DNA of 32,247 nucleotides from a virus (Duplodnaviria > Caudoviricetes), in the IMG/VR virus record IMGVR_UViG_3300025632_000046, positions 1 through 32,247 of that record; one strand, 5' to 3'. Shown here piece by piece: positions 7,333-32,247 of the stretch (within the stretch, counting starts at the first letter, position 1; every line of letters begins with the position of its first letter). A model generated the notes under the pieces. That model ran no database searches. It saw only the letters and a list, made by a program, of their open reading frames with translations, and was not told the origin of the DNA. A program made the translations under genes and the position numbers.

Positions 7333-8490
7333 ATGTCACGCCCTAGAAAAACTCGCATTCTTAAAATCGATGGTCGAAAAAAACCGCATCGGGTGATTTA
7401 CTGGGAGGGCGACGCTCGCAAAACGTTACATTTTGAAAAAAAAATTGATGCTCAGCTCTTTGCTCGTCAACACGGCTGGGAAACGTTTGACCCGGCGCTG
7501 GCGGTTTCGGCTGAGGAAAGGATCTTAATCGGCAAGGCGCGGGGCGCGGCCGCTGCTCTCGGAGTGGATGCAAATGCCATTTTCGAGGCCGGACTGAGGG
7601 CGATGCGGTCGACCGCCCGACAGGCTCCCCCGCTGGGAACCGCGATCAGAGCCTATATCGAGGCGGCCGAGCTGGCTGGCGGCCGACCTACGTCGCTGGC
7701 GAATTTGCAACGGTTTTTAGGATTTTTTGAGACAGTTGCAGGTTCTTCGGCACGGGTTGAGGATATCTCGGCCGTGATGGTCTCCAGGGCGGCACAGGCT
7801 CGGTACTCGAACGCGGAGAGCGTGCGCTCGTACATGGCCGTGACGATCGCGTTTTTTAGGTGGTGCGCGGACGCAGAGCGGCAATGGGCTGGCCCTGAGT
7901 GGTTTCTGCGCATCAAGTTGCGGACAGATAGAACCGATAAAGAGCGCGTCACGATCGCGGAGCCGGCACAGGTCGCTGAATTTATGGCTCACTGCCCGGC
8001 GCGGTATCAGCCGGGCTTTGCGATCCAATGGTTTGCGGGGGTGCGTCCTGAGGAAATGGTGCCGTCATATCGCCAGAAGGCGAGGCTAATGTGGAGCGAC
8101 ATCGATCTGGACGCTCGCACGATCCAGATCCGGGCGGCGGTCTCGAAAATCCGGCATCCGCGCTTGATCCATGACTGTTTTAATAATTTGTGGAGCTGGT
8201 TGGCAGCGGTTCCGGAGGCTGAGCGCACTGGCCAGGTGATGCCGATCAACCGTAACAATTTTAAAAAAATGCGCCGCGCGATTGCGGATAAATCGGGCTT
8301 GCCGACACCTTGGCCGCGCGATTTGCCGCGGCATTCATTCGGGACGTACTCGTTTCATCTTTTTGGATTGGAAACGACGATCAATAACACTGGCCACATG
8401 AGTGAGCCGAAAACGTTTTTTTCGCACTATAAAGGATCGACCATAAAAGCCGAGGCGATTGCTTATTCTAATATAGAGTGTCTCATCTAG
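7333..8490 (+). CDS. int: Tyrosine recombinase / phage integrase
   Basis: Box I FAGVRPEE, catalytic K in SKIR, box II DLPRHSFGTY, GH, catalytic Y in FSHY; adjacent to attP. Confidence 0.93.
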   Translation: MSRPRKTRILKIDGRKKPHRVIYWEGDARKTLHFEKKIDAQLFARQHGWETFDPALAVSAEERILIGKARGAAAALGVDANAIFEAGLRAMRSTARQAPPLGTAIRAYIEAAELAGGRPTSLANLQRFLGFFETVAGSSARVEDISAVMVSRAAQARYSNAESVRSYMAVTIAFFRWCADAERQWAGPEWFLRIKLRTDRTDKERVTIAEPAQVAEFMAHCPARYQPGFAIQWFAGVRPEEMVPSYRQKARLMWSDIDLDARTIQIRAAVSKIRHPRLIHDCFNNLWSWLAAVPEAERTGQVMPINRNNFKKMRRAIADKSGLPTPWPRDLPRHSFGTYSFHLFGLETTINNTGHMSEPKTFFSHYKGSTIKAEAIAYSNIECLI

Positions 8491-18699: not shown

Positions 18700-21147
18700 T
18701 TACTGGCTCAGCCGAGCGTGCCAGGTGAACGTCTGACCGGCGGTCGTCGGATCAGCATCGGCGTTGATCGTAAATTGTGTATCAGTGATGCTAGTCACCC
18801 AGAATTTCACAGAGTCCGTGCTATTGGTCGGCGCGATCGACACCTCAGTGGGGGCTTTGCGGACGCCATGAGCCACAACGATACTAGTCGTTCCGGTGGC
18901 GATAGTGGCAGTGCCTGAGTTAGTCACCTTGTAGCCGGTGCCGTTGACATAATAGTTATTAGCAATTACCCCCGTAGTGGGAGCTGACGCGGAAATGTTT
19001 AAATCTTTATTAGAACCATCCAAACGGTTACCAGTAATCACATAATCAGTGGTCGTGCCCGCTAGATAAATCCCCCAATAATGCTCCACCCAATTCCCCA
19101 TGACGACGGGGCTCGCTCCTGATAGCGAAATCCCCGAATGGAAAGACGCATTACCCGTCGCACGGATTACGTTACCTGAAATCACCCCGTAATTGGTTGA
19201 GGATGCTGCGCCAATGGCCGCGAAGTTTACGATGTCCTTTAAATTGTTATTTGAAATAACGTAGTTATCGCCGGTCGTAATTGAAATCCCCCCATAAGCT
19301 CCAATCAATTGCAGGAAATTTTCCGTAATGGTGAGATTGTCGCCACCGAGCCTAATCCCCGCATCGACGGTGGCCGAGATGGTATTACCCGATATTACGA
19401 CCCGATCCACAGTGCCATTATTAGTGATCCCCCGATCACCAGAATCGAGGATGCGATTTGCGTGAACCATCGCGTCGTGAGATGAGAGCTGGATGGAGTG
19501 GCTCCCGGTGCCAGAAATCACGTTACCACTAATATCGGCGTATGGTTGAGCTGTGGTCGTATAAATGCCCACACCGACCGCATCGGTGACTTCGCCATTT
19601 TTAAATGTGCAATGAGCGCCTGCGATGTAAACGCCTTGCGCACCGGCTCTCAGCGTGGTGTTGCCCGCACACGTAATCCCATCCTTGACCAGGTGGAAAC
19701 CAATCGTGCCCGAGTCTGCATCCAAGCAATCAGTTATTTTCGCATTTTCCGCGCTGATATAAAATCCCACGGCGGCGGCGTTTAGCGAGGTATTACCCGA
19801 TGCACGCAGCACACTGGCCCCGCTGCCACCCGTCGCAGCACCCAATATGAAACCATTGACTAACGAATCCTCAGACACATTACCGTCAATCGAGCACCCA
19901 TCCGCAAAGGTCACACTGATCCCAGTGTTCTGCGTGGCCTTGGTGTAGTTACCACTGACGACGTGAAAGTTACCCGCGACGCTTAACCCGAAACCACCAG
20001 TTGATGTCGAGGTGACACCCTCCACCGAATTGCCCATGATCTTAATGCCCCGAGCCACCGAGGTCACGCCAACAGCGGCAGCGCCAATGATGTCGGAAAA
20101 TTTATTGCCGATAACAGTGGTATGCTCTGGTCGGCACTCCTCTTGAGTCAGCGTGCCACCGTCGTCATCGTAAGTCATGTCGATGCCTTTAGGCTCGGAT
20201 GCCCCACCAACCGACCAACCAAATCCGGTGTTGGTAACTTCGTTAAAGCTTATATCACCATTACGCACGCCATACGTATGAATGCCGTTACCATTACAAT
20301 CGTAGATTCGATTGTGAGTGATCACCGCACCCGGGTTCACCCCATCAAGATCAATGCCGTCTTGACCTGCGCTGTGAATCCAGCAGTTGCGGATCGTCAG
20401 ATTTTCCGTATTGTCACCATTAATCACCTCATTCTCGCGATAGGGAGATTGCGCCGGATAGCTACCATCGAGCTGAAGACTATGGATCGTGACGTTCTTA
20501 AAATAGCGCGATCCGTTTTTGTTGATCTTCACGACACGCCAATCACTATCAGCCGTGGCGTTCAGCTTTAAACATGAGTCAAAACCCACCCCAAAAAGCG
20601 TTGTCCCTTCGACCGTAATATCAAGGTCACGCACCATGTATGTGCCAGGCGGAATAAACACAGCCCCACCAACATCGAGCGCCGCCTGGATCGCAGCAGT
20701 GTCATCAGTCACGCCATCGCCGATAGCACCATAGGGCGCATTTTTAACATTAATAATGGCAGTAGATTGATTAGTGGCCAGGGTGCCTTGCGCGGCAGTA
20801 GCAAACGCAGCATCCGCTGCAGTGACAGTGTAAGCATCCGCAATCCCATAGCCCGAGAGCGTGGTCGGCTTGCCGGTGACGTCGGCCCAGGCGGAGGTGA
20901 TGTTTAAATCCGCAGCCCACTCGGCTGCATCAAATGCGGAGTTGCTCGACGGGTCCGCCGCAAAGGGCGAGACGATCTGCTCCAGGGTGGCATCGACATC
21001 GGCAGGCGTGCCATCGACATCGACCATCCAGACCTTGTCGCTCGCGCTGATCGTGGTGGCATCGGGTAGCGCCTCGATGGTGCTGGTCGCGGCCTGCGCG
21101 AACAGTGAGAGTGACAGTGCGAGTGCGAGTGTGAAAATGTATTTCAT
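18700..21147 (-). CDS. Beta-helix fibre/spike (pectate-lyase-3-like depolymerase fold) with N-terminal signal peptide
   Basis: WADVTGKPTTLSGYGIADAY and ATAAQG fibre repeats; NVKNAPYGAIGDGVTDDTAAIQAAL...FIPPGTY; many I.GN repeats; C-terminal beta-sandwich. Confidence 0.88.
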   Translation of the reverse strand: MKYIFTLALALSLSLFAQAATSTIEALPDATTISASDKVWMVDVDGTPADVDATLEQIVSPFAADPSSNSAFDAAEWAADLNITSAWADVTGKPTTLSGYGIADAYTVTAADAAFATAAQGTLATNQSTAIINVKNAPYGAIGDGVTDDTAAIQAALDVGGAVFIPPGTYMVRDLDITVEGTTLFGVGFDSCLKLNATADSDWRVVKINKNGSRYFKNVTIHSLQLDGSYPAQSPYRENEVINGDNTENLTIRNCWIHSAGQDGIDLDGVNPGAVITHNRIYDCNGNGIHTYGVRNGDISFNEVTNTGFGWSVGGASEPKGIDMTYDDDGGTLTQEECRPEHTTVIGNKFSDIIGAAAVGVTSVARGIKIMGNSVEGVTSTSTGGFGLSVAGNFHVVSGNYTKATQNTGISVTFADGCSIDGNVSEDSLVNGFILGAATGGSGASVLRASGNTSLNAAAVGFYISAENAKITDCLDADSGTIGFHLVKDGITCAGNTTLRAGAQGVYIAGAHCTFKNGEVTDAVGVGIYTTTAQPYADISGNVISGTGSHSIQLSSHDAMVHANRILDSGDRGITNNGTVDRVVISGNTISATVDAGIRLGGDNLTITENFLQLIGAYGGISITTGDNYVISNNNLKDIVNFAAIGAASSTNYGVISGNVIRATGNASFHSGISLSGASPVVMGNWVEHYWGIYLAGTTTDYVITGNRLDGSNKDLNISASAPTTGVIANNYYVNGTGYKVTNSGTATIATGTTSIVVAHGVRKAPTEVSIAPTNSTDSVKFWVTSITDTQFTINADADPTTAGQTFTWHARLSQ

Positions 21148-23129: not shown

Positions 23130-23765
23130 TTATTGAAGCCGGGCTGCTCGCAAGCGTAGCACCTGCAAACTCGGCGTAGTTGGTTTTTCGTTGCGCTCTT
23201 CCGAGGCAGATTGCCCGGCGGGAGATTTGGTGCGGCTCAGTTCGAGGCTACGCTTGGCGATGCTCGTATCTGGATACGCGGGAAAAGTAACAGCAGAGAC
23301 CTCGATCAGCTCGACATCGATCAAACGGCGCAGCTCGGGCTCATCCTCGCGCTCGATCCATTCTTGCTCGCGGGCACGGAAGCCAAAACTCATGCCGTCG
23401 ATATTGCCGGCGTTGATGTTGGCGATCAGATCGCGGGCCGCAGTGGTATCGGGCAGATCGATCTCGATCCGCAGCCCGGTCGCGTCCTCCTCTAGGCGCA
23501 GGGTTTTTGCATCGCGGCGCCCAATCACCTGCGCGCTGTCGTGATTATACAGCGCTCGCACATCGTCGCCATCGGTCAACGATCGCGTAAAGGCACCCAC
23601 CACCACCTCCTCCTCGAACCAGCCCAGATCGGTGCGCGAATCAAACACCGCAGCATAGCCCACCAGCGTCGGCATCGTGCCATCAGCGCCAGCACGTAGC
23701 TCGACGCGGCTAGTAGTCACGGCGCTGCGGATTTCGGTCTGCAAAGGAGATGGTTTTTTAATCAT
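23130..23765 (-). CDS. Prohead protease, HK97 family
   Basis: GYAAVFD, ALYNHD, GMSFGF, EVSAVTFPAYPDT. Confidence 0.96.
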   Translation of the reverse strand: MIKKPSPLQTEIRSAVTTSRVELRAGADGTMPTLVGYAAVFDSRTDLGWFEEEVVVGAFTRSLTDGDDVRALYNHDSAQVIGRRDAKTLRLEEDATGLRIEIDLPDTTAARDLIANINAGNIDGMSFGFRAREQEWIEREDEPELRRLIDVELIEVSAVTFPAYPDTSIAKRSLELSRTKSPAGQSASEERNEKPTTPSLQVLRLRAARLQ

Positions 23766-25003
23766 TTGGTGTCGGGTTTATTATTGGCAGCATCGGCCAT
23801 GTTAAGCGGTTGCAGATAGACGTCGCCCTGCGCGCCGATATTACTCAAATCTTCCAGAGCGCGGATCTCGTTGACGTTCATCCACCCCCCATTACGCGCG
23901 ATGCTATACGCCTCAAAGCGCGTTTTCAGATCACCACGGAGCAACCCCGCGATATTAAATTTGATAAAATGCGTTTTCCGCTCCTCGGCGCTCAGCAGCT
24001 TTTGATCCAGCGCCTGCTCCCAGGTCACCAAGATCGGGCGAATCGTATCAGTGACGAACGATATATTCTCCTGCTCCACATTGGCACGCGGCTGGTTGCC
24101 GATGATCCCTACTTTGTGCCCAGGCACCGAAAAGAAACGCGCAATATCCTTCGCCTGACGATCGCGAGATTCATCAAACTGGCTCTCGTTATTCTTCGAT
24201 CTGCCTTCGCGAAACTTTAAATCCTCTTCCAGAACTTTCACTTTGCTGGCATTTTCGCCACCGGTCGCCGTCTGGAAAGCCACCTCCAAACGTTTGAGCG
24301 CCTCGGGGCTCAACTGGTTCGGAGTTTCAAGGAAGCCACCGGGGAAAGAGCCATTCTTGAAAAAATAGCCCGCGTTTTTATCCAGCGCCGCAGCCAAGCC
24401 GATACTATCGCGTGCGGTATCAGTCAGGCTTGCAGGCAGGATGCCATTAAACGACGTGCCACGCAGGTGGATCACCTGGCTGCCATCCAACGTGCTACCA
24501 TCCACAATATATTTTAACTCACCAGCGATACGTTTCGGCTGCACGTCCTTCGCCTGCCGAGCGATCAACCCAGTAATATCGCCAAACCCATTGCGCACGA
24601 TGATCGCGTACCCGTTTTGATGCAGCGATAGATTCGCCTGCACCGCGCGCCGAAAATCCACCGATGTCATATCCTCATGCGGCGCACTGTGCAAAATCGA
24701 CTGCAAATGATGATCTAAATCCACGGTACTCGCCCGCTCGCCCGGTACTCGCCGGTGAACATTTAGCGGCAGCGTCGCCACCGTGTTGGCCAACAGATTA
24801 ACCGCCGCATACGCCGTCGAAACGCCCATCGCCACCTGCTCATTAACATTAATGCCAGCGCTCGAGGCCGCGCCCAACAGCGAGTTAATCCACAGCGTCT
24901 CTACCGATGGGGCCGCAGGGGCCGCAACCGCCCCCGCCTTAAACGATGCACGCGCCTCCGTCCCCGGAATAAATTTTGCGATAGATGAAAATAGCTGCGG
25001 CAT
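23762..25003 (-). CDS. Portal protein, HK97 family
   Basis: LANTVATLPL, GYFFKNG, IARFFSVP, LLRGDLKTR, GWMNVNEIRALEDL. Confidence 0.96.
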   Translation of the reverse strand: MPQLFSSIAKFIPGTEARASFKAGAVAAPAAPSVETLWINSLLGAASSAGINVNEQVAMGVSTAYAAVNLLANTVATLPLNVHRRVPGERASTVDLDHHLQSILHSAPHEDMTSVDFRRAVQANLSLHQNGYAIIVRNGFGDITGLIARQAKDVQPKRIAGELKYIVDGSTLDGSQVIHLRGTSFNGILPASLTDTARDSIGLAAALDKNAGYFFKNGSFPGGFLETPNQLSPEALKRLEVAFQTATGGENASKVKVLEEDLKFREGRSKNNESQFDESRDRQAKDIARFFSVPGHKVGIIGNQPRANVEQENISFVTDTIRPILVTWEQALDQKLLSAEERKTHFIKFNIAGLLRGDLKTRFEAYSIARNGGWMNVNEIRALEDLSNIGAQGDVYLQPLNMADAANNKPDTK

Positions 25004-25094
25004 GCATACAGAGTGGCCGAGCCCGAACGACTAAACAATTCACGGATTGTTTTACCTCGTTTAACTGAGTTTTACTGAGTCTAGTTCCAGTGGG

Positions 25095-25140
25095 GCAGAA
25101 CAGTCATGCGACTCAATGCTGAGTCTCTTTTACGTTCTCT
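25095..25140 (+). repeat. attC-like site 1 (short, possibly degenerate)
   Basis: GCAGAAC...GACTCA-ATGC-TGAGTC...GTTCTCT. Confidence 0.6.
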
Positions 25141-25304
25141 AATTGAATTTCAGCATCCATCTTGTCGAATAACTTCAGCTCCTTCTCCCATCGATCCATT
25201 AGTCGTCTGAACTCTTTGCGGTTTTCAGCATCAAGAAACGCATCACCACTAAAAACTGACGCATCAATGGCATCTAGTTGATCTTCTAAGTATTTTCGCA
25301 TCAT
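25113..25304 (-). CDS. Cassette 1 hypothetical protein
   Basis: 63 aa; the C-terminus ENVKETQH* is encoded inside site 1. Confidence 0.75.
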   Translation of the reverse strand: MMRKYLEDQLDAIDASVFSGDAFLDAENRKEFRRLMDRWEKELKLFDKMDAEIQLENVKETQH

Positions 25305-25334
25305 AGTATTTATCGTGTTTGTGTTACGTCTGGC

Positions 25335-25382
25335 CGAGAACCAGACAGTCGAGGGAACAAGTCCCTCACTTATTCGTTATAC
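25335..25382 (+). repeat. attC-like site 2 (48 bp)
   Basis: CGAGAAC-CAGAC-AGT(C)GAGGGA-ACAAG-TCCCTCACT-TATTC-GTTATAC. Confidence 0.88.
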
Positions 25383-25655
25383 TTAAAAGTCGTAGGCGAT
25401 TTCCTGCCGCTTCGCCAGCTCTAGGACGGCGGTCTCTTCTGTTGCATCCCACACAATATCGGGATGATCGCACGGGTAACATGTGCCGCAAGTCATGGCA
25501 TCCAACATCGCCGATTCATAGTCACCAACCCATGCTTCCCACTTGCCCTCGTCTTCGTTAATATCTTCACGGCGCTTTGTCTGTATGCCGTGTTTTTCAC
25601 GCCATAGAATATACGGCGATTTGCTCGCCACTTCGTTTTCTTTGAATAGTTCCAT
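25383..25655 (-). CDS. Cassette 2 hypothetical protein
   Basis: 90 aa ORF; its stop abuts the R' box of site 2. Confidence 0.78.
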   Translation of the reverse strand: MELFKENEVASKSPYILWREKHGIQTKRREDINEDEGKWEAWVGDYESAMLDAMTCGTCYPCDHPDIVWDATEETAVLELAKRQEIAYDF

Positions 25656-25680
25656 ATTGTTCCAGTCGTTACGTTAAAAA

Positions 25681-25743
25681 GTATAACAAATCAGCGCTCA
25701 CAATTCCTTCGTGCCTCAGTCATGAGACACTTCATTGTTTGTA
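25681..25743 (+). repeat. attC-like site 3
   Basis: GTATAAC-AAATC-AGCGCTCA...TGAGACACT-TCATT-GTTTGTA. Confidence 0.78.
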
Positions 25744-25775
25744 AAATTTTGGGAGGTATAACCAGATCGCTTGAT

Positions 25776-25970
25776 TCAATCGTATTGATCCACGGTTGTA
25801 TTAATAGCATCAGTGATCATTTCAGCCTCGCTAGCTCTGAAACAAAAGTGGTCTTGTCCTTCACCCTCCAACCCAATGCAAAACTCATCATCGGTATTTT
25901 CTATTTTGTAGATGCGAAGTCTTTGCCCTTCATCATTCGTTAGTATTACTGTTTCATATTCTTTTTTCAT
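25776..25970 (-). CDS. Cassette 3 hypothetical protein
   Basis: 64 aa; the ATG lies inside the R'' box (TCATAAC) of site 4. Confidence 0.72.
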   Translation of the reverse strand: MKKEYETVILTNDEGQRLRIYKIENTDDEFCIGLEGEGQDHFCFRASEAEMITDAINTTVDQYD

Positions 25971-26054
25971 AACCAGTCAGTGCGGTGAATGCGAGATCAC
26001 GCGCCAGTGTTGTTTAAATCAGTTGGCTCGCATCCACCAACTTCGTTGTTCTGC
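25967..26054 (+). repeat. attC-like site 4
   Basis: TCATAAC-CAGTC-AGTGCGGTGAATGCGAG...CTCGCATCCACCAACT-TCGTT-GTTCTGC. Confidence 0.86.
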
Positions 26055-26060
26055 TTCAGA

Positions 26061-26378
26061 TTATCCACCACCCCACCAAGCGAAGCCTTCGGGAGTTGTC
26101 ACCTTTCTCGGGCGAGGAACATCTTTCGGCAATTCGTATGGTTGGCGTGGATCGTCTCGGTCTTCAGAGTGTCCGCGAATATTCCACCATGCTGTGTGGT
26201 CAGCCTCTTTGAGAGCATCCCACGCTCCGGCCTCATCAGCGGCGAAGGCGAACGCCATGCCGTCTGTGTAATCGGTCAATACGCATTCCCAAACCCAGCA
26301 GAACAAGGCAGTGCTACCAACCTGCTCCCCGCTGGGAGTTGTCGGCGTTAATTCTGATTCGGTAGTTTCTGGTGTCAT
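26061..26378 (-). CDS. Cassette 4 hypothetical protein
   Basis: Start moved to ATG 26378 (MTPETTES) inside the loop of site 5; LFCWVWECVLTDYTDGMAFAFA...AWWGGG. Confidence 0.75.
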   Translation of the reverse strand: MTPETTESELTPTTPSGEQVGSTALFCWVWECVLTDYTDGMAFAFAADEAGAWDALKEADHTAWWNIRGHSEDRDDPRQPYELPKDVPRPRKVTTPEGFAWWGGG

Positions 26379-26426
26379 TGGTCGTTTTTGGTTGTGTCCG
26401 CAGGTGGCAGACTTTGGTCGTTCTAC
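26298..26426 (+). repeat. attC-like site 5
   Basis: GCAGAAC-AAGGC-AGT(G)CTACCAACCTGC...GCAGGTGGCAGACT-TTGGTC-GTTCTAC. Confidence 0.88.
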
Positions 26427-26857
26427 TAAAAATCCCCCTTCGCCACTTGGAAGCACGGCACGCATACGCTTCTCCAGTATTCCACCATCGAGTCTCGGTC
26501 CTCAAAAACCAAGTCAGGTCGGATGCCGATAAGTTGCAGCATCTCAGGCTTGACGATTGTATCGTGACGACGATCCCCATCAGGGCGCATCAGTAGATGT
26601 TTATACCCGATCACTCCATTCTTTCGCAGCCACTCTTCTGTTTGTGGCCTTACGGATTCCCTGCGACCAGTAAGCAAGACCATCTCTGGCCCCATCCCTG
26701 TAGCGTGCAGAGCTTGGTAAGTTTGGATCGCTGGATGATTCGGGAGGTCTTCTCCGCACCGCTCATAGAACTCATCCCAATTTCCGTCTGCTAAGCATTT
26801 CACGCGGTCGCCTACCAATGAGAGTGTTCCGTCTATATCGAATATTACTGTCTTCAT
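26426..26857 (-). CDS. Cassette 5: HAD phosphatase, T4 polynucleotide kinase 3'-phosphatase-like
   Basis: FDIDGTL, LLTGR, LLMRPDGDRR.D...K, VFEDR...W...CFQVAKGDF. Confidence 0.9.
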   Translation of the reverse strand: MKTVIFDIDGTLSLVGDRVKCLADGNWDEFYERCGEDLPNHPAIQTYQALHATGMGPEMVLLTGRRESVRPQTEEWLRKNGVIGYKHLLMRPDGDRRHDTIVKPEMLQLIGIRPDLVFEDRDSMVEYWRSVCVPCFQVAKGDF

Positions 26858-26894
26858 AGTTTGTTGTATTTTAGTGTTATTGTAGCGTTAAAAA

Positions 26895-26956
26895 GTAGAA
26901 CCAAACGGAGCTAGGAGCTGCGTCGTTCCTCCTTGTCCTAGTCCTTCTTGTTCGCA
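26895..26956 (+). repeat. attC-like site 6
   Basis: GTAGAAC-CAAAC-GGA(G)CTAGGA...TCCTAGTCC-TTCTT-GTTCGCA. Confidence 0.9.
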
Positions 26957-27273
26957 GAGAGAAGCGCCCAACTTGTATGACATTCGGGGCAGACAAAAAC
27001 TCTACCATTCTCTAGCGCGTCATCTTCACTCTGGCCGGGGTCTTCGATTAGATCGTCTTCCGGTCCACTCCATGTGCAGTGGTTGTGGCATTCAATCTCG
27101 ATTTCCGAACATAGCACTGCACCTAATGCCGAGCCGGCTTCCGTCTCTCCATTATCGAGATTCATTCTCAAAAAAAACTCATCAAGCCGTTTTAGCGCTT
27201 GGAGCGTCACAATAATCGTTATCTCGTTGGGAAGTTCGTATTCTGTCAATCGCTTTTCGTTATTTTTTATCAT
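26938..27273 (-). CDS. Cassette 6 gene b: Zn-ribbon-like protein
   Basis: CHNHC...CPEC; C-terminus SANKKD* inside site 6. Confidence 0.72.
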   Translation of the reverse strand: MIKNNEKRLTEYELPNEITIIVTLQALKRLDEFFLRMNLDNGETEAGSALGAVLCSEIEIECHNHCTWSGPEDDLIEDPGQSEDDALENGRVFVCPECHTSWALLSANKKD

Positions 27274-27282
27274 ATTTTTACC

Positions 27283-27507
27283 TTATGTTTCTGTATTCAT
27301 AGCTTTCTGGCGCTCATTCGCAGACAGCAAGCCGTAGCCCATCGCGAAAAATGCAACTAGCATTGCATCTACACCAGCGGCGCGACTGTTAGCTGTGAGA
27401 ATAAACGTCATCATGCCCACCCAGCACCACGTCGGCCCAAACCATCGAACCAAACGATTGAGACAACGCCATATAGCGCCGCCGTGTTTGTCTGTAGATT
27501 TATCCAT
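27283..27507 (-). CDS. Cassette 6 gene a: small membrane protein
   Basis: Start (MDKSTDK) in the loop of site 7; two hydrophobic stretches. Confidence 0.62.
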   Translation of the reverse strand: MDKSTDKHGGAIWRCLNRLVRWFGPTWCWVGMMTFILTANSRAAGVDAMLVAFFAMGYGLLSANERQKAMNTET

Positions 27508-27532
27508 GGCGTATCTCATCTAGGCGTTCTGC
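27444..27532 (+). repeat. attC-like site 7
   Basis: ATCGAAC-CAAAC-GAT(T)GAGACAACGCCAT...ATGGCGTATCTCATC-TAGGC-GTTCTGC. Confidence 0.88.
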
Positions 27533-27786
27533 TCATGTCGGAAGCTCCACGCGAAGAACGCCGCCTTCGATCCGCCGCGGCCTTTTGCGTTCATCTCGCC
27601 GCCTCGCAGTCGCTCAATCATCCATTCGAGTTCCGTGATTGCGTCGTCAGTGGTTTCCGCTGTGATCGCAACCGTAATGTGCACTGGCCGATGCAACCGA
27701 AACGGTGCGGATTCCCACTCACCAACGACATCGGGCAAAGCCGAACAAACAGGATGCAGACAACGCTCTATGGGCTTTTTTGTCAT
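27520..27786 (-). CDS. Cassette 7 hypothetical protein
   Basis: Starts in the site 8 loop and ends EQNA* in site 7. Confidence 0.72.
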   Translation of the reverse strand: MTKKPIERCLHPVCSALPDVVGEWESAPFRLHRPVHITVAITAETTDDAITELEWMIERLRGGEMNAKGRGGSKAAFFAWSFRHEQNA

Positions 27787-27828
27787 ATTGATGTCTTGGG
27801 TTCGCGTGTCTGATCCTGAGCGTTCTGC
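27740..27828 (+). repeat. attC-like site 8
   Basis: GCCGAAC-AAACA-GGAT(G)CAGAC(A)ACGC...GCGTGTCTGATCC-TGAGC-GTTCTGC. Confidence 0.9.
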
Positions 27829-28115
27829 TTAGAATTTTGCTCGCGTATCTTTGCAGCACGTTCGAGGGCGCGTTCTGCCGCTGACTCATACTGCTCGGCG
27901 GTCGGCCATCCCGCAACCAGGCCGATTCCAACGTCATCATGCGCCTCGATTTCGTCCATGATTTTTCCGTCAGAGCGGACAAGCCTTAAATGCAGGCGAG
28001 GCCGTTGTCCACGCATCGCCTGCATGTAGCCGTCGCAGTATCCCCGCGATCGCCCCTTGATGAACGGGTTCCATTTGTCCAAACACGGACATTCGATGTG
28101 ATATGTGTAAGCCAT
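27783..28115 (-). CDS. Cassette 8 gene b hypothetical protein
   Basis: Start at 28115 (MAYTY) or 28133; ends in site 8 with an ATGA overlap to the next gene. Confidence 0.72.
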   Translation of the reverse strand: MAYTYHIECPCLDKWNPFIKGRSRGYCDGYMQAMRGQRPRLHLRLVRSDGKIMDEIEAHDDVGIGLVAGWPTAEQYESAAERALERAAKIREQNSKQNAQDQTREPKTSI

Positions 28116-28119
28116 AGTT

Positions 28120-28356
28120 TTAATTAGGGTCATCGTAGCATCTCAAGCAATCTCCGCACAAAGCGTGAGTGTATCCATGAGCGTTATCTTTAAGAATCCA
28201 CCTGTCGCGCTCTACGAATTGGCCGCAATCTCCGCATCGCATGTAGAACAAGTCGGAGTGAGACAATGCCTGTTTGGGCGTTGTCGTGCATTCGCCTCGA
28301 TGGGAGACTTGGCACTTAAGGCAGACTGGAGCGGCATTGTATATTTGATCACTCAT
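28120..28356 (-). CDS. Cassette 8 gene a: Cys-rich Zn-finger-like protein
   Basis: CLKC, CGDC, CGDC; starts inside site 9. Confidence 0.7.
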   Translation of the reverse strand: MSDQIYNAAPVCLKCQVSHRGECTTTPKQALSHSDLFYMRCGDCGQFVERDRWILKDNAHGYTHALCGDCLRCYDDPN

Positions 28357-28387
28357 GATTCAGGCATGTTCATCCTTTGCGTTATGA
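28243..28387 (+). repeat. attC-like site 9
   Basis: GTAGAAC-AAGTC-GGA(G)TGAGACAATGCCTG...CAGGCATGTTCATCC-TTTGC-GTTATGA. Confidence 0.86.
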
Positions 28388-28644
28388 AGATAAAGCGCAT
28401 CAGATCCGTATCGCGTGATGCTGTAATATTTATCAGGACACCATGACACCGTTCCGCGATATTCCATCAGCCCCATATCGACGAGCTTGTCCATCGCTTC
28501 CGAGCCTCCACAATATAGACCTCTAGTTGCGCGGTGTTGGGTATGGTCGAGGATGTCTAGCATCTCCTTCGTCAGTTCATAACCAGACGGCGTAGTCAAT
28601 GCCTGAGCCGTCGCTGTGTTTGTTGTATCAGTTGGTTTTCCCAT
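28360..28644 (-). CDS. Cassette 9: winged-helix-like hypothetical protein
   Basis: MDKLVDMGLMEY...YYSITRYG; starts in site 10 and ends HNAKDEHA* in site 9. Confidence 0.72.
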   Translation of the reverse strand: MGKPTDTTNTATAQALTTPSGYELTKEMLDILDHTQHRATRGLYCGGSEAMDKLVDMGLMEYRGTVSWCPDKYYSITRYGSDALYLHNAKDEHA

Positions 28645-28710
28645 AGTCTTAATCCTTATCTATTGTCGTTGGTTTTGTGGCTCAGTCATCGACTAGCCTA
28701 TTTGTTGTCG
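28577..28710 (+). repeat. attC-like site 10
   Basis: TCATAAC-CAGAC-GGC(G)TAGTCAATGCCTGAGCC...GGCTCAGTCATCGACTAGCC-TATTT-GTTGTCG. Confidence 0.9.
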
Positions 28711-28734: not shown

Positions 28735-28977
28735 TTATTTTGAAAAATCAACATGCAGAGTGGCCACTGGTACCGCGCCAGCATCTCCTGAAGTTTTTTT
28801 TAAATAGTTGGTCGTCGAAAAATTCGGATGCGCCCGCAGCCACTCCCGCGCCTCGGCCACTGTCGCAGTACCGCCTGGCATCGCAAAACCCGATTTTTTC
28901 ATCGCGTAAATATAACACCGCGAGCGGCGCAGCGCATCAGCCAATTCGTCGGCAAATAATAAATTGTTGTCACTCAT
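28735..28977 (-). CDS. Small HTH-like DNA-binding protein
   Basis: DELADALRRSRCYIYAMKKSG...VAEAREWL; ATGA overlap with terL. Confidence 0.65.
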   Translation of the reverse strand: MSDNNLLFADELADALRRSRCYIYAMKKSGFAMPGGTATVAEAREWLRAHPNFSTTNYLKKTSGDAGAVPVATLHVDFSK

Positions 28978-30641
28978 AGTTCAATGATTCCGCGGTCCTC
29001 ATACACGCTGCGCTCAGCCTTGTTTTTCAGGATTGCGCCGCCCACCGCATTTGATTTTGCCGACAGGCCGTCGATTCGTTTTCGCGCCGAGCGCTTGTTT
29101 AATTTAATATTCAGCGCCGGATCTCGAATCGTCTCTGCATTTGCCGCATTCCAGCTCAGCACTGGGTTCGGCGCATTGCGCAGCGTGCCATTCAGCAGCC
29201 GCCGCTCGATCTCCTTGAGCGCCGGGCTTTGCGACTGGTACCCCTGACCAAACGGCACGCACGTCACCACCTCCTCGCGCATCAGATTCTGCACGATGCT
29301 CGACGATTTCCAGCGGTCATATAATAATTCTTGCACATCGAAACGCTCGACCAGCTCACGAATTTCTACCTCGATAAAATCAAAATCAGTCGCACTGCCA
29401 GGCGTCGACCGCAAGTGCCCGGCTTTTGCCCATTGCGCATAAGGCACCCGGTCCGCCCTCGAGCGTTCCAATATATCTTCCGCGGGACACCAGAAAATCG
29501 AGAAACTGCGCCAGATCCCATCATCCCCAGGGAACAAGATATCGAGCGCCGACATATCATTGACCTCGGCCAAATCTAGCCCCAGGTAGCACGGCTGCCC
29601 CGCGAAATCTTCCAGGCGCAGCGCGGCATCCTCGGCAGCTTTCCACCGCGCCAGATCCAACCAGCGCTCGGCGGCATGGCTCCAAATATTCAAATGCTTT
29701 ACTTGAAAATCCACCATGCGACTCGGCAGCTGAATGGCCTTGCGACATTGATCTTCCATATATTCCAACCCCTTCGATACGCCCAGGTTAGGATTCGCCA
29801 TAGCCCACTGCAGCGGATCGTCAAACGCGTCCTTATCCGTCACCGTCGCGATATAAACGAACAGCGTATCGTCATAATATTCTTCCATTGCCGGATCCAG
29901 CACGTTGATCGCGTGCTCATGTTTCTCATAGCAGAGCGACTCAGGATTGACCCCCGCCGTGGTGATCACATAGATCAACGGCTGCGCACGCGCGCCCATC
30001 GAATCCTCCACCTGCGACCACAGCAGCCGATCCTCCCAGGCATGCAGCTCGTCAACCAGACCCATGTGCGTATTCAAACCATCGATCGTTTTAGAATCAC
30101 GCCCGAGCGGCTCGAACTTTGAAGCCATCGAAGGCATCGATATATTAGACACGTAGCAGTTTATCCGCTTCGCCAGCGCAGGCGATTTGCTGATCATCAT
30201 TTTCGCATCCGTCCACAGGATTTTAGCCTGATCGCGTTTCGTCGCTACCGCGTAAATTTCAGCCCCCTGCTCTCCATCCAGCGCCAGCCCATAAATGCCA
30301 GTGCCCCCGCCAATCGTCGTTTTTCCATTTTTACGCGGTATCTCCACATAGCTCTCTCGAAAACGCCGCAGCCCGTCGAGCCGACGCTTCCAGCCAAAGA
30401 TCGAGCCCTGAATAAACATTTGCCACATTTCCAACTCGATCGCCGTGCCGGACCATTTGCCTTTCCAGTGTTTCAACAATTTGAAAAAATCCAGATGCAC
30501 CGCCACCTCTTCCAGATCAAGATAGATATCATCACGCTGCAGATCCGCAAAATGGCGCTCACACGCCCAGATCACATACGGCCCCGCCGCGATCTCACCC
30601 GCCAGCACCCGCTCAGCGTATAGAGTCACCGGATCATTCAC
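28974..30641 (-). CDS. terL: Terminase large subunit
   Basis: Walker A PRKNGKT, Walker B LVDELH, ITTAG, LGLDLA, RIDG. Confidence 0.97.
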   Translation of the reverse strand: MNDPVTLYAERVLAGEIAAGPYVIWACERHFADLQRDDIYLDLEEVAVHLDFFKLLKHWKGKWSGTAIELEMWQMFIQGSIFGWKRRLDGLRRFRESYVEIPRKNGKTTIGGGTGIYGLALDGEQGAEIYAVATKRDQAKILWTDAKMMISKSPALAKRINCYVSNISMPSMASKFEPLGRDSKTIDGLNTHMGLVDELHAWEDRLLWSQVEDSMGARAQPLIYVITTAGVNPESLCYEKHEHAINVLDPAMEEYYDDTLFVYIATVTDKDAFDDPLQWAMANPNLGVSKGLEYMEDQCRKAIQLPSRMVDFQVKHLNIWSHAAERWLDLARWKAAEDAALRLEDFAGQPCYLGLDLAEVNDMSALDILFPGDDGIWRSFSIFWCPAEDILERSRADRVPYAQWAKAGHLRSTPGSATDFDFIEVEIRELVERFDVQELLYDRWKSSSIVQNLMREEVVTCVPFGQGYQSQSPALKEIERRLLNGTLRNAPNPVLSWNAANAETIRDPALNIKLNKRSARKRIDGLSAKSNAVGGAILKNKAERSVYEDRGIIEL

Positions 30642-32092: not shown

Positions 32093-32199
32093 AAGATTAA
32101 ATTCCCCCCCGCTCCCCCCGGCCCACGTTACCACCTGTCATTTCCGTCGCTTTTTGAGCGTTTTGGATAGGATCCGCCCCCCCTGGTGCAATATGCGCG

Positions 32200-32247
32200 G
32201 TTTTCGAAACCCCCTTTGCCCAAAACCTGCGCACACATTTTTTTAAC
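32200..32247 (-). other. cos-proximal genome end
   Basis: Non-coding end upstream of the packaging genes; the other window end lies in the G-rich tail of the HNH gene, the usual HNH-cos-terS arrangement. Confidence 0.65.

Follow-up and report, generated by a model that had tools for sequence, protein, structure and literature searches.

An attC array of bottom-strand cassettes with a common stop frame in the terminase–portal interval of a tailed phage

The virus record IMGVR_UViG_3300025632_000046 of IMG/VR (Duplodnaviria; Caudoviricetes) was analysed over its positions 1 to 32,247 as a single stretch of 32,247 nucleotides, referred to here as the window. Between a fixed small gene (28977–28735) next to the terminase gene and the portal gene (start 25003), 11 short open reading frames (ORFs) lie on the minus strand and are interspersed with ten attC-type sites, which delimit nine cassettes, two of them with two genes. 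The genes run along the attC sites' bottom strand, and the locus raises the question of what kind of element this is and how its genes are exchanged, terminated and expressed. The array is very probably a cluster of attC sites lacking an integrase (CALIN) that is seated between terminase and portal, with bottom-strand genes and with cassettes swapped at AA|C, likely by an IntI supplied from outside.

The sites were located by a pattern scan of both strands (AAC, a 5–6 nt spacer, L′, loop, L′′ with one extra base, spacer, GTT). Matches were obtained on the minus strand with AAC starting at 25378, 26050, 26422, 26952, 27528, 27824, 28383 and 28706; site 1 (25136) was taken from a folding scan and site 3 (25739) from a plus-strand pattern match together with a weak minus-strand score of 6.4. 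The array sites made up eight of the ten top minus-strand scanner scores in the whole window, and the best plus-strand score at any of them was 6.4. The attC anatomy (R′, L′, L′′, R′′ and an extrahelical base opposite AAC) is clear in eight of the ten sites. Sites 1 and 3 are imperfect; the minimum-energy fold of site 3 has no clean extra base, and its junction (25737–25741) carries one A more than the same junction in the variant L009 and in sequencing run X7. The extra base sits on the 3′ arm of the minus strand, opposite AAC, and an extrahelical base on the arm opposite AAC is the criterion for the bottom strand (PMC5027507). Orientation was also fixed independently of the genes by pairing at the level of whole cassettes: the four outer R′′ bases pair with R′ at the far end of their own cassette at 28 of 36 positions (permutation p 6e-5), the corresponding figures being 15 of 40 inside single sites and 12 of 36 for the other neighbour, and this is the trace expected of circular cassettes cut at AA|C. 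Outside the core the sites have almost no sequence in common. Pattern scan and R-box pairing thus bore out the earlier sequence-only reading, which had described ten sites and 11 ORFs, all on the attC bottom strand. Unconstrained AAC–GTT folding was too noisy for calling sites and was dropped. A hairpin at 25026–25061 was rejected as an eleventh site; it lacks both a proper extra base and a proper spacer, and it looks like a conserved motif in front of the portal gene. A canonical cassette carries its ORF on the attC top strand and ends it at or before its own R′′, and here 11 of 11 ORFs are on the bottom strand; at least two attC sites without a neighbouring intI, as in a CALIN, are present in the contig, which may be incomplete. 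In its workings the array is like an integron array, and it counts as a CALIN but not as an array of canonical cassettes.

Wild copies were compared with the window, and array parts without coverage in a run were excluded from the evidence. Among contigs of this phage that bear the portal gene, L001, L002 and L010 have the window arrangement. L003 starts at the crossover of site 1, which is also where L004 and L009 diverge, and runs X3, X8, X10 and X16 start or diverge at the same point. L009 holds five different cassettes between sites 3 and 1, and L008 has one new cassette in place of two between sites 6 and 4; at site 3 both L009 and X7 switch cassette. Comparison of eight runs with the array yielded six distinct joints, four of them at GTT cores. 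In three of these the offset equals the distance between two GTT cores (902, 2392 and 3328), the 902 joint being found in three runs from two studies; in the fourth the site 10 arm is joined to the site 3 core. The sequences brought together at joint 25375/28704 share 3 letters only. In run X10 the last cassette of the window stands first, so that order varies besides content. Cassettes gained, lost and reordered at the G|TT crossover were hence found in L008, L009 and the joints. The core of site 1 reads GAC in L004:848 and L009:1668 and AAC in runs X8, X10 and X16; it is a point change after insertion which keeps the frame (Asp for Asn). Array pieces occurred in RNA run X16 as contigs only, from which strand and expression are not readable, and a blastn search of the array against 50,697 GenBank phage records gave no match.

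All ten sites hold a stop 2–17 codons past AAC in the frame that reads AAC as a codon (the AAC frame). The first in-frame stops (25113, 25370, 25716, 25997, 26375, 26938, 27520, 27783, 28360 and 28698) were identical to those listed by the earlier reading, and its further statements that five genes cross AAC as Asn (EN, AN, QN, QN and HN), that ATGA overlaps occur at sites 5 and 8 and that a 3-nt gap occurs at site 9 were likewise confirmed. Within 17 codons a stop was present at 10 of 10 sites in the AAC frame and at 7 and 6 of 10 in the other frames; shuffled window sites gave a mean of 6.0 of 10 and a probability of about 0.005 for all ten. The window alone is weak evidence for a frame rule because the 17-codon limit came from the same sites, and the frame claim accordingly rests on an independent viral set described below.

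Swapping of C-terminal tails by shuffling, as proposed in the earlier reading, was observed in assemblies. The tail of gene 27273 has 13 residues in L008 versus three in the window, and the stop of site 4, idle in the window, serves the new gene in L008. Each of the seven new attC sites in L008, L009 and L011 has an AAC-frame stop within 17 codons, and all seven new genes end through the AAC frame, one of them across a GAC core variant. Three homologous methyltransferase cassettes have KPN in common and then different ends; a fourth ending, KPN plus one residue, is found in the methyltransferase of MW202573 (supplement of Qi et al.). Homologues of the cassette 9 gene have Asn at the crossover position in eight of the 41 that are long enough, and all eight tails differ; these eight lack DNA context and are suggestive only. 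The tails of homologous cassette proteins past the Asn thus diverge, as the shared-frame claim demands.

For the independent set, an alignment of 19 IntI-type integrases was used as the query, and the best 80 viral and the best 80 bacterial loci among the matches listed were taken; a single-protein IntI scan of viral contigs had found nothing. As a null set served 80 terminase loci of distant phages (35–44%) from a scan with a terminase alignment. Upstream of intI and on its strand (score 10), sites occurred at 45.9 per 100 kb in viral and 28.6 per 100 kb in bacterial loci, against 1.8 per 100 kb in the terminase loci; of the 80 loci in each group, 50 viral and 32 bacterial ones had a site. 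The bottom strand carried the longer ORF in 113 of 132 viral versus 11 of 38 bacterial cassettes, and in 100 of 112 versus 6 of 26 (p 5e-11) when at least three of four R pairs were required and locus L180 was left out. Stop frames were counted with the 17-codon limit unchanged. The counts covered 150 of the 176 viral sites, from 45 loci, and 51 of the 61 bacterial sites, from 26 loci, after omission of sites near locus ends or more than 7 kb from intI, of L180 and of near-duplicates. Viral stops in the AAC, ACN and NAA frames numbered 115, 67 and 80 of 150, against shuffle means of 66, 66 and 63 (AAC frame 66±6, maximum 82 in 200 shuffles). The bacterial counts were 27, 24 and 24 of 51, with shuffles at about 25. 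Taken by locus, the AAC frame leads in 31, trails in 10 and ties in 4 viral loci (p 0.0015), and leads in 12, trails in 10 and ties in 4 bacterial loci. The comparison of three frames with shuffles and with bacterial attC sites, by which the shared frame could have failed, hence gave an AAC excess in viral sites only. At the 62 viral sites whose stop no gene uses, an AAC-frame stop was present in 47 (27.9 in shuffles), in keeping with the earlier observation that stops are retained where they are unused. In these phage integrons the frame rule is both real and general. In the locus excluded above (L180:6239–7687, a Luteolibacter contig) five sites and four inverted AAC-frame cassettes stand beside intI, one cassette being repeated; this array probably lies in a prophage.

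The further proposition that any cassette ends in its neighbour and is translationally coupled to it was overstated. Of the 150 viral sites, 88 are crossed as Asn by the gene upstream; at 34 that gene stops at TAA|C, at 13 it uses another frame, and 15 have no long frame at the crossover. For coupling, the next ATG lies within the attC at 94 of 145 viral sites; it is within 15 nt of the AAC-frame stop at 83 of 145 (26 and 34 for the other frames) and overlaps it as ATGA at 42 of 145. Among the stops used in the window, three of five abut an ATG, and those of sites 6 and 1 are 80 and 109 nt away, the latter from the portal ATG. The stop/start geometry is consistent with re-initiation and may be likened to ORF-11 at attI1, for which re-initiation, as well as attC hairpins as translation barriers, has been reviewed (PMC8876359).

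In the explanation proposed here a cassette, read along its gene, would consist of C plus the rest of an attC hairpin, the gene and then xxxxAA. The gene would often start in its own attC and either stop at or before the crossover or cross it as Asn into the following cassette, as seen above, and each attC would tend to hold an AAC-frame stop, which it does above chance. Selection has likely retained this stop, whereby whatever neighbour lies upstream would end within about 20 codons. The stop may often arise where the ATG of the cassette itself stands in the ATGA phase, an arrangement that would permit re-initiation. Expression of the array would probably depend on the phage transcript from the terminase gene instead of on the integron promoter Pc.

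An unlikely but better surviving alternative accepts the array and its shuffling as real and takes the stop frame for a by-product of cassette birth or of expression from the cassette's own circle, of L-box letters and of ATGA starts, instead of selection for compatibility with neighbours. It would account for the higher frequency of stops in cassettes with read-through of their own gene (53 of 61, 28.0 expected) than in those without (20 of 29; p 0.08), and a cassette's own history may contribute to the stop frame. It also agrees with the enrichment of the NAA frame at unused-stop sites (39 of 62 versus 26.8) and with the phases of the start codons (29/43/73, p 3e-5), the commonest of which is the one that gives ATGA in the AAC frame; start-codon phase accounts for much of the signal from overlaps and for most of the ATGA excess. 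However, cassettes without read-through of their own keep the stop well above the 11.6 expected, which favours neighbour-driven selection; genes that read through do so in the AAC frame in 88 of 101 cases, and a stop unused in the window is used in L008.

No match to TIGR02249 (IntI) was found in the contig, which thus has no intI of its own as a complete integron would. The phage's own tyrosine recombinase (7333–8490) was rejected as an IntI, being of the phrog_1 type. A relative, L011, with a portal protein 86% identical, has at the same terminase–portal locus (L011:3000–4340) one inverted cassette, an attI candidate, an IntI-like gene and a terminator-like hairpin. The IntI-like gene encodes 326 amino acids, and its best family is TIGR02249 (E 5e-76). 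The attI candidate has an AAC-frame stop at codon 3 and lies between the last cassette and intI; no attI was recognised by eye in the window. The intI of L011 lies past the array and on the bottom strand, which is its place in ordinary integrons as well. The reversal is accordingly confined to the ORF inside the cassette, and backward insertion as well as membership of the inverted-integrase group are thereby excluded. The orientation assigned to the array is supported by this relative too, besides the extrahelical bases and the R-box pairing. To judge from these sequences, the cassettes of the window are likely swapped by an IntI of the host or of a related phage acting in trans. An L011-like ancestor with intI and attI at the portal end probably existed, both having been lost in the lineage of the window. 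In run X14, cassette 9 (window 27823) is followed by letters that resemble the attI candidate of L011, and cassette 9 may for this reason stand first in an integrase-bearing array elsewhere.

That the hairpins are translation or transcription signals, and that the variation arose by homologous or microhomology recombination without IntI, is very improbable. The lack of IntI in the contig, the weak folding of several sites and the stops and starts contained in the sites would all fit; on the other hand, signals of this kind would have to share almost no sequence outside the core, a joint with three shared letters would have to be made by homology, the pairing of R boxes across whole cassettes implies that circular intermediates were cut at AA|C, and matching sites cluster beside intI in the 50 of 80 viral loci mentioned above.

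Cargo and gene families bear on the origin of the cassettes. Among 143 proteins from viral cassettes, 24 gave a Pfam match, which in 12 of these was to a methyltransferase or Mom, and the cargo in related phages (DNA methyltransferases, Mom and Lar) suggests a shuffled reservoir of counter-defence genes. PADLOC gave no match for 13 proteins, a set without the L008 and L009 cassette proteins. Among 81 proteins tested, those from the flanks include terminases and replication genes, so the arrays occupy several kinds of phage operon. The family of the cassette 9 gene also occurs at 28 other viral loci, in 26 of which no attC-like site lies close by; it therefore exists both as a cassette and as a plain phage gene. 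Least probable is a captured stretch of host integron, or ordinary cassettes inserted backwards via the top strand, that is now largely inert: capture of host integron segments by phages (PMC9892861) and backward insertion through top-strand recombination (PMC5027507) have been described, but backward insertion flips attC with the gene, whereas here the attC–intI polarity is usual and the ORF alone is reversed, the cargo is of phage type, the cassette 9 family mostly stands apart from attC-like sites at other viral loci, and cassette order varies among wild copies, by which this account is largely refuted.

Besides what has been conceded above to the cassette's own history, several points weigh against a CALIN that is shuffled by IntI and kept in frame by selection. 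The integrase of L011 scores 256 bits, below the cut-off of 265, and the contig itself is without one. The scanner was the authors' own and was shaped on the sites of the window, and the fold z-scores of the ten sites are modest (−3.3 to +0.7, four above −0.2). Two of the six joints are not core-to-core, one being 9 nt off with unknown letters between, while in the other the loop of site 5 has a deletion. As a control the bacterial set is small and was not matched to the host, and the sites of Rctr41k and MW202573 do not all obey the AAC rule.

The CALIN interpretation was compared with systems already described. Phage CALINs, i.e. attC clusters without integrase, have been published (Qi et al., 2023; PMC9892861), and their attC sites were shown to recombine with IntI1. 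The window resembles them in having an attC array in a phage genome without intI, and related arrays share their methyltransferase cargo; bottom-strand genes, gene–attC overlap and a frame rule are absent from the available body text of that paper. TJE1, the phage tested there, is forward by the scanner, whereas the published phage CALIN of MW202573 (L257:2073–3900) appears inverted on reading of its sequence; the scanner recovered one site only, with a score of 9.0. In KX853513 (L255:8419–10097) four attC-like sites lie downstream of an IntI-like gene, with the bottom strand as the gene strand and no AAC-frame pattern. Canonical integrons consist of IntI, attI, Pc and cassettes with top-strand ORFs (PMC5027507, PMC4889954). 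The phage arrays share with them the extrahelical bases opposite AAC, the AA|C crossover and a bottom-strand intI beyond the array (L011 and the viral loci); unlike in canonical integrons, the ORFs are co-directional with intI, start in their own attC at the 94 of 145 sites already given and often end in that of the neighbour. A Pc would be needless if the phage transcript is used, and the window lacks intI and a recognisable attI. In ORF-11 and ORF-18 of attI1, reviewed along with small ORFs within attC (PMC8876359), an ORF also crosses the crossover, the incoming cassette gives the stop and coupling to the next gene occurs; those ORFs are a short top-strand leader peptide, whereas in the phage array the protein is cargo, any junction serves, the strand is the bottom one and the frame is that of AAC. 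Integrons with inverted integrase (Treponema and others, PMC4889954) likewise have intI and cassette genes in the same direction, but there intI is flipped relative to attC, whereas in L011 and the viral loci intI lies past the array on the bottom strand, its relation to attC is the usual one and it is the ORF that is reversed. No description of inverted, frame-locked phage cassettes was found in the literature searched, which was mostly open-access text with figures not covered. What is new here is this inverted, frame-locked cassette design; attC arrays in phages were already known (PMC9892861).

The features of the locus, all on the minus strand, are given in the direction of the genes. The large terminase subunit (28974–30641; PF20441, PF03354) forms the upstream flank and is followed by the fixed small gene (28735–28977), which is not a cassette and is conserved in L011. 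Site 10 (28577–28710; extra base C) was found by the pattern scan; its stop at 28698 is unused, and variant upstream neighbours occur in X3, X8 and X10. A cassette gene of 94 amino acids (28360–28644) starts in the loop of site 10 and reads through site 9 (28243–28387; extra base C) as HN to the stop at 28360, 3 nt after which the next ATG follows. Within site 9 starts a Cys-rich gene of 78 amino acids (28120–28356), with a homologue in cassette L172, which leads a two-gene cassette; next comes the cassette 9 gene (27783–28115; 110 amino acids, or 116 from an upstream ATG at 28133; 50 homologues), which reads through site 8 (27740–27828; extra base C) as QN to the stop at 27783 that overlaps an ATG. 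The following gene (27520–27786; 88 amino acids) starts in the loop of site 8 and reads through site 7 (27444–27532; extra base A; joint 27524/25133) as QN, its stop at 27520 being immediately followed by ATG. A gene of 78 amino acids (27283–27519) starts within site 7 and leads another two-gene cassette; the gene of 111 amino acids at 26938–27273, which has the other tail in L008, reads through site 6 (26895–26956; extra base C; L008 breakpoint; joint 26045/26948) as AN to the stop used at 26938.

Beyond site 6 most genes have their own stop. The first (26426–26857; 143 amino acids) encodes a HAD-type polynucleotide kinase phosphatase domain (PF25109, E 6e-28; phrog_415) and is followed by site 5 (26298–26426; extra base C), whose stop at 26375 overlaps an ATG and is unused and whose loop is 70 nt shorter in X14. 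A gene of about 105 amino acids (26061–26378; weak phrog_34232 match) ends at its own stop and has its probable start in the loop of site 5, in ATGA. Site 4 (25967–26054; extra base C; stop 25997, unused here and used in L008) precedes a gene of 64 amino acids (25776–25970) with its own stop and an ATG overlapping the R′′ box of site 4. Site 3 (25681–25743), the weakest, has the additional A at its junction and an unused stop at 25716, and L009 and X7 change cassette here; it is followed by a gene of 90 amino acids with its own stop (25383–25655). Site 2 (25335–25382; extra base G) has its stop at codon 2 (25370), unused here, and is the place of joint 25375/28704 in X10. The last gene (25113–25304; 63 amino acids) reads as EN through site 1 (25095–25140), a short terminal attC-type site and the constant end of the array, to the stop used at 25113. 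Direct protein support was obtained for two of the 11 ORFs, the phosphatase-domain gene and the gene with 50 homologues; three further ORFs have weak PHROG matches only. In run X6 depth rises to about 1400 and about 4100 against about 80 at 25316–25469 and 27318–27471, owing to short contigs that match near sites 2 and 7.

Downstream of the array a motif with 10-bp periodicity (25040–25085), which may be a promoter element, precedes the portal gene (23762–25003; PF04860, E 3e-85). It is the sole match to its pattern in the window, and similar 10-bp-spaced repeats stand before the portal gene in L011:4545–4590 and L012:945–990; they are possibly a late promoter or activator site. A scan of the window for promoters and terminators stayed at shuffle level (4 versus 5.0; 8 versus 3.9±2.4). 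Because the motif is present before the portal gene in three phages and a terminator-like hairpin was read from the sequence after intI in L011, the suggestion that shared stops limit polarity on the portal and capsid genes is unsupported, the last stop also being 109 nt from the portal ATG; the portal gene probably has its own upstream signal.

The whole record includes terminase, portal, tail, primase and phrog_1 integrase genes, and IMG/VR classes the contig as linear and 43% complete. G/C runs are abundant at its ends (1–60; 32134–32247), which lie between an HNH gene and pre-terminase genes, a pattern that we take to be that of a cos region; the contig may on this ground be nearer to complete than estimated. 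A protein of 815 amino acids with a beta-helix (18700–21147) is likely a tailspike or depolymerase. Most runs that contain the array stretch come from marine metagenomes. A verrucomicrobium is the probable host, judged by the named relatives nearest to the L011 integrase (Coraliomargarita, 55%).

In integron theory the choice of the attC strand serves to align genes with Pc. The same chemistry appears here to serve genes of the opposite strand in a phage morphogenesis operon, and to do so across many phages with their own IntI. Recombination takes place inside coding sequence in a fixed frame, so that the C-termini of proteins change with natural shuffling, and the stop that a cassette carries serves its neighbours. 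To our knowledge, how cassettes are created is an open question; a cassette gene family that is also a plain phage gene offers a handle on it. On balance we lean towards the view that phages run a cassette pool of their own with reversed grammar, minted from ordinary phage genes and plugged into the phage operon via a frame-locked, tail-swapping Asn junction, which would be silent in host integrons as host anti-phage cassettes would be in the phage array. If this is true, the non-cassette twins would make the origin of cassettes directly testable.

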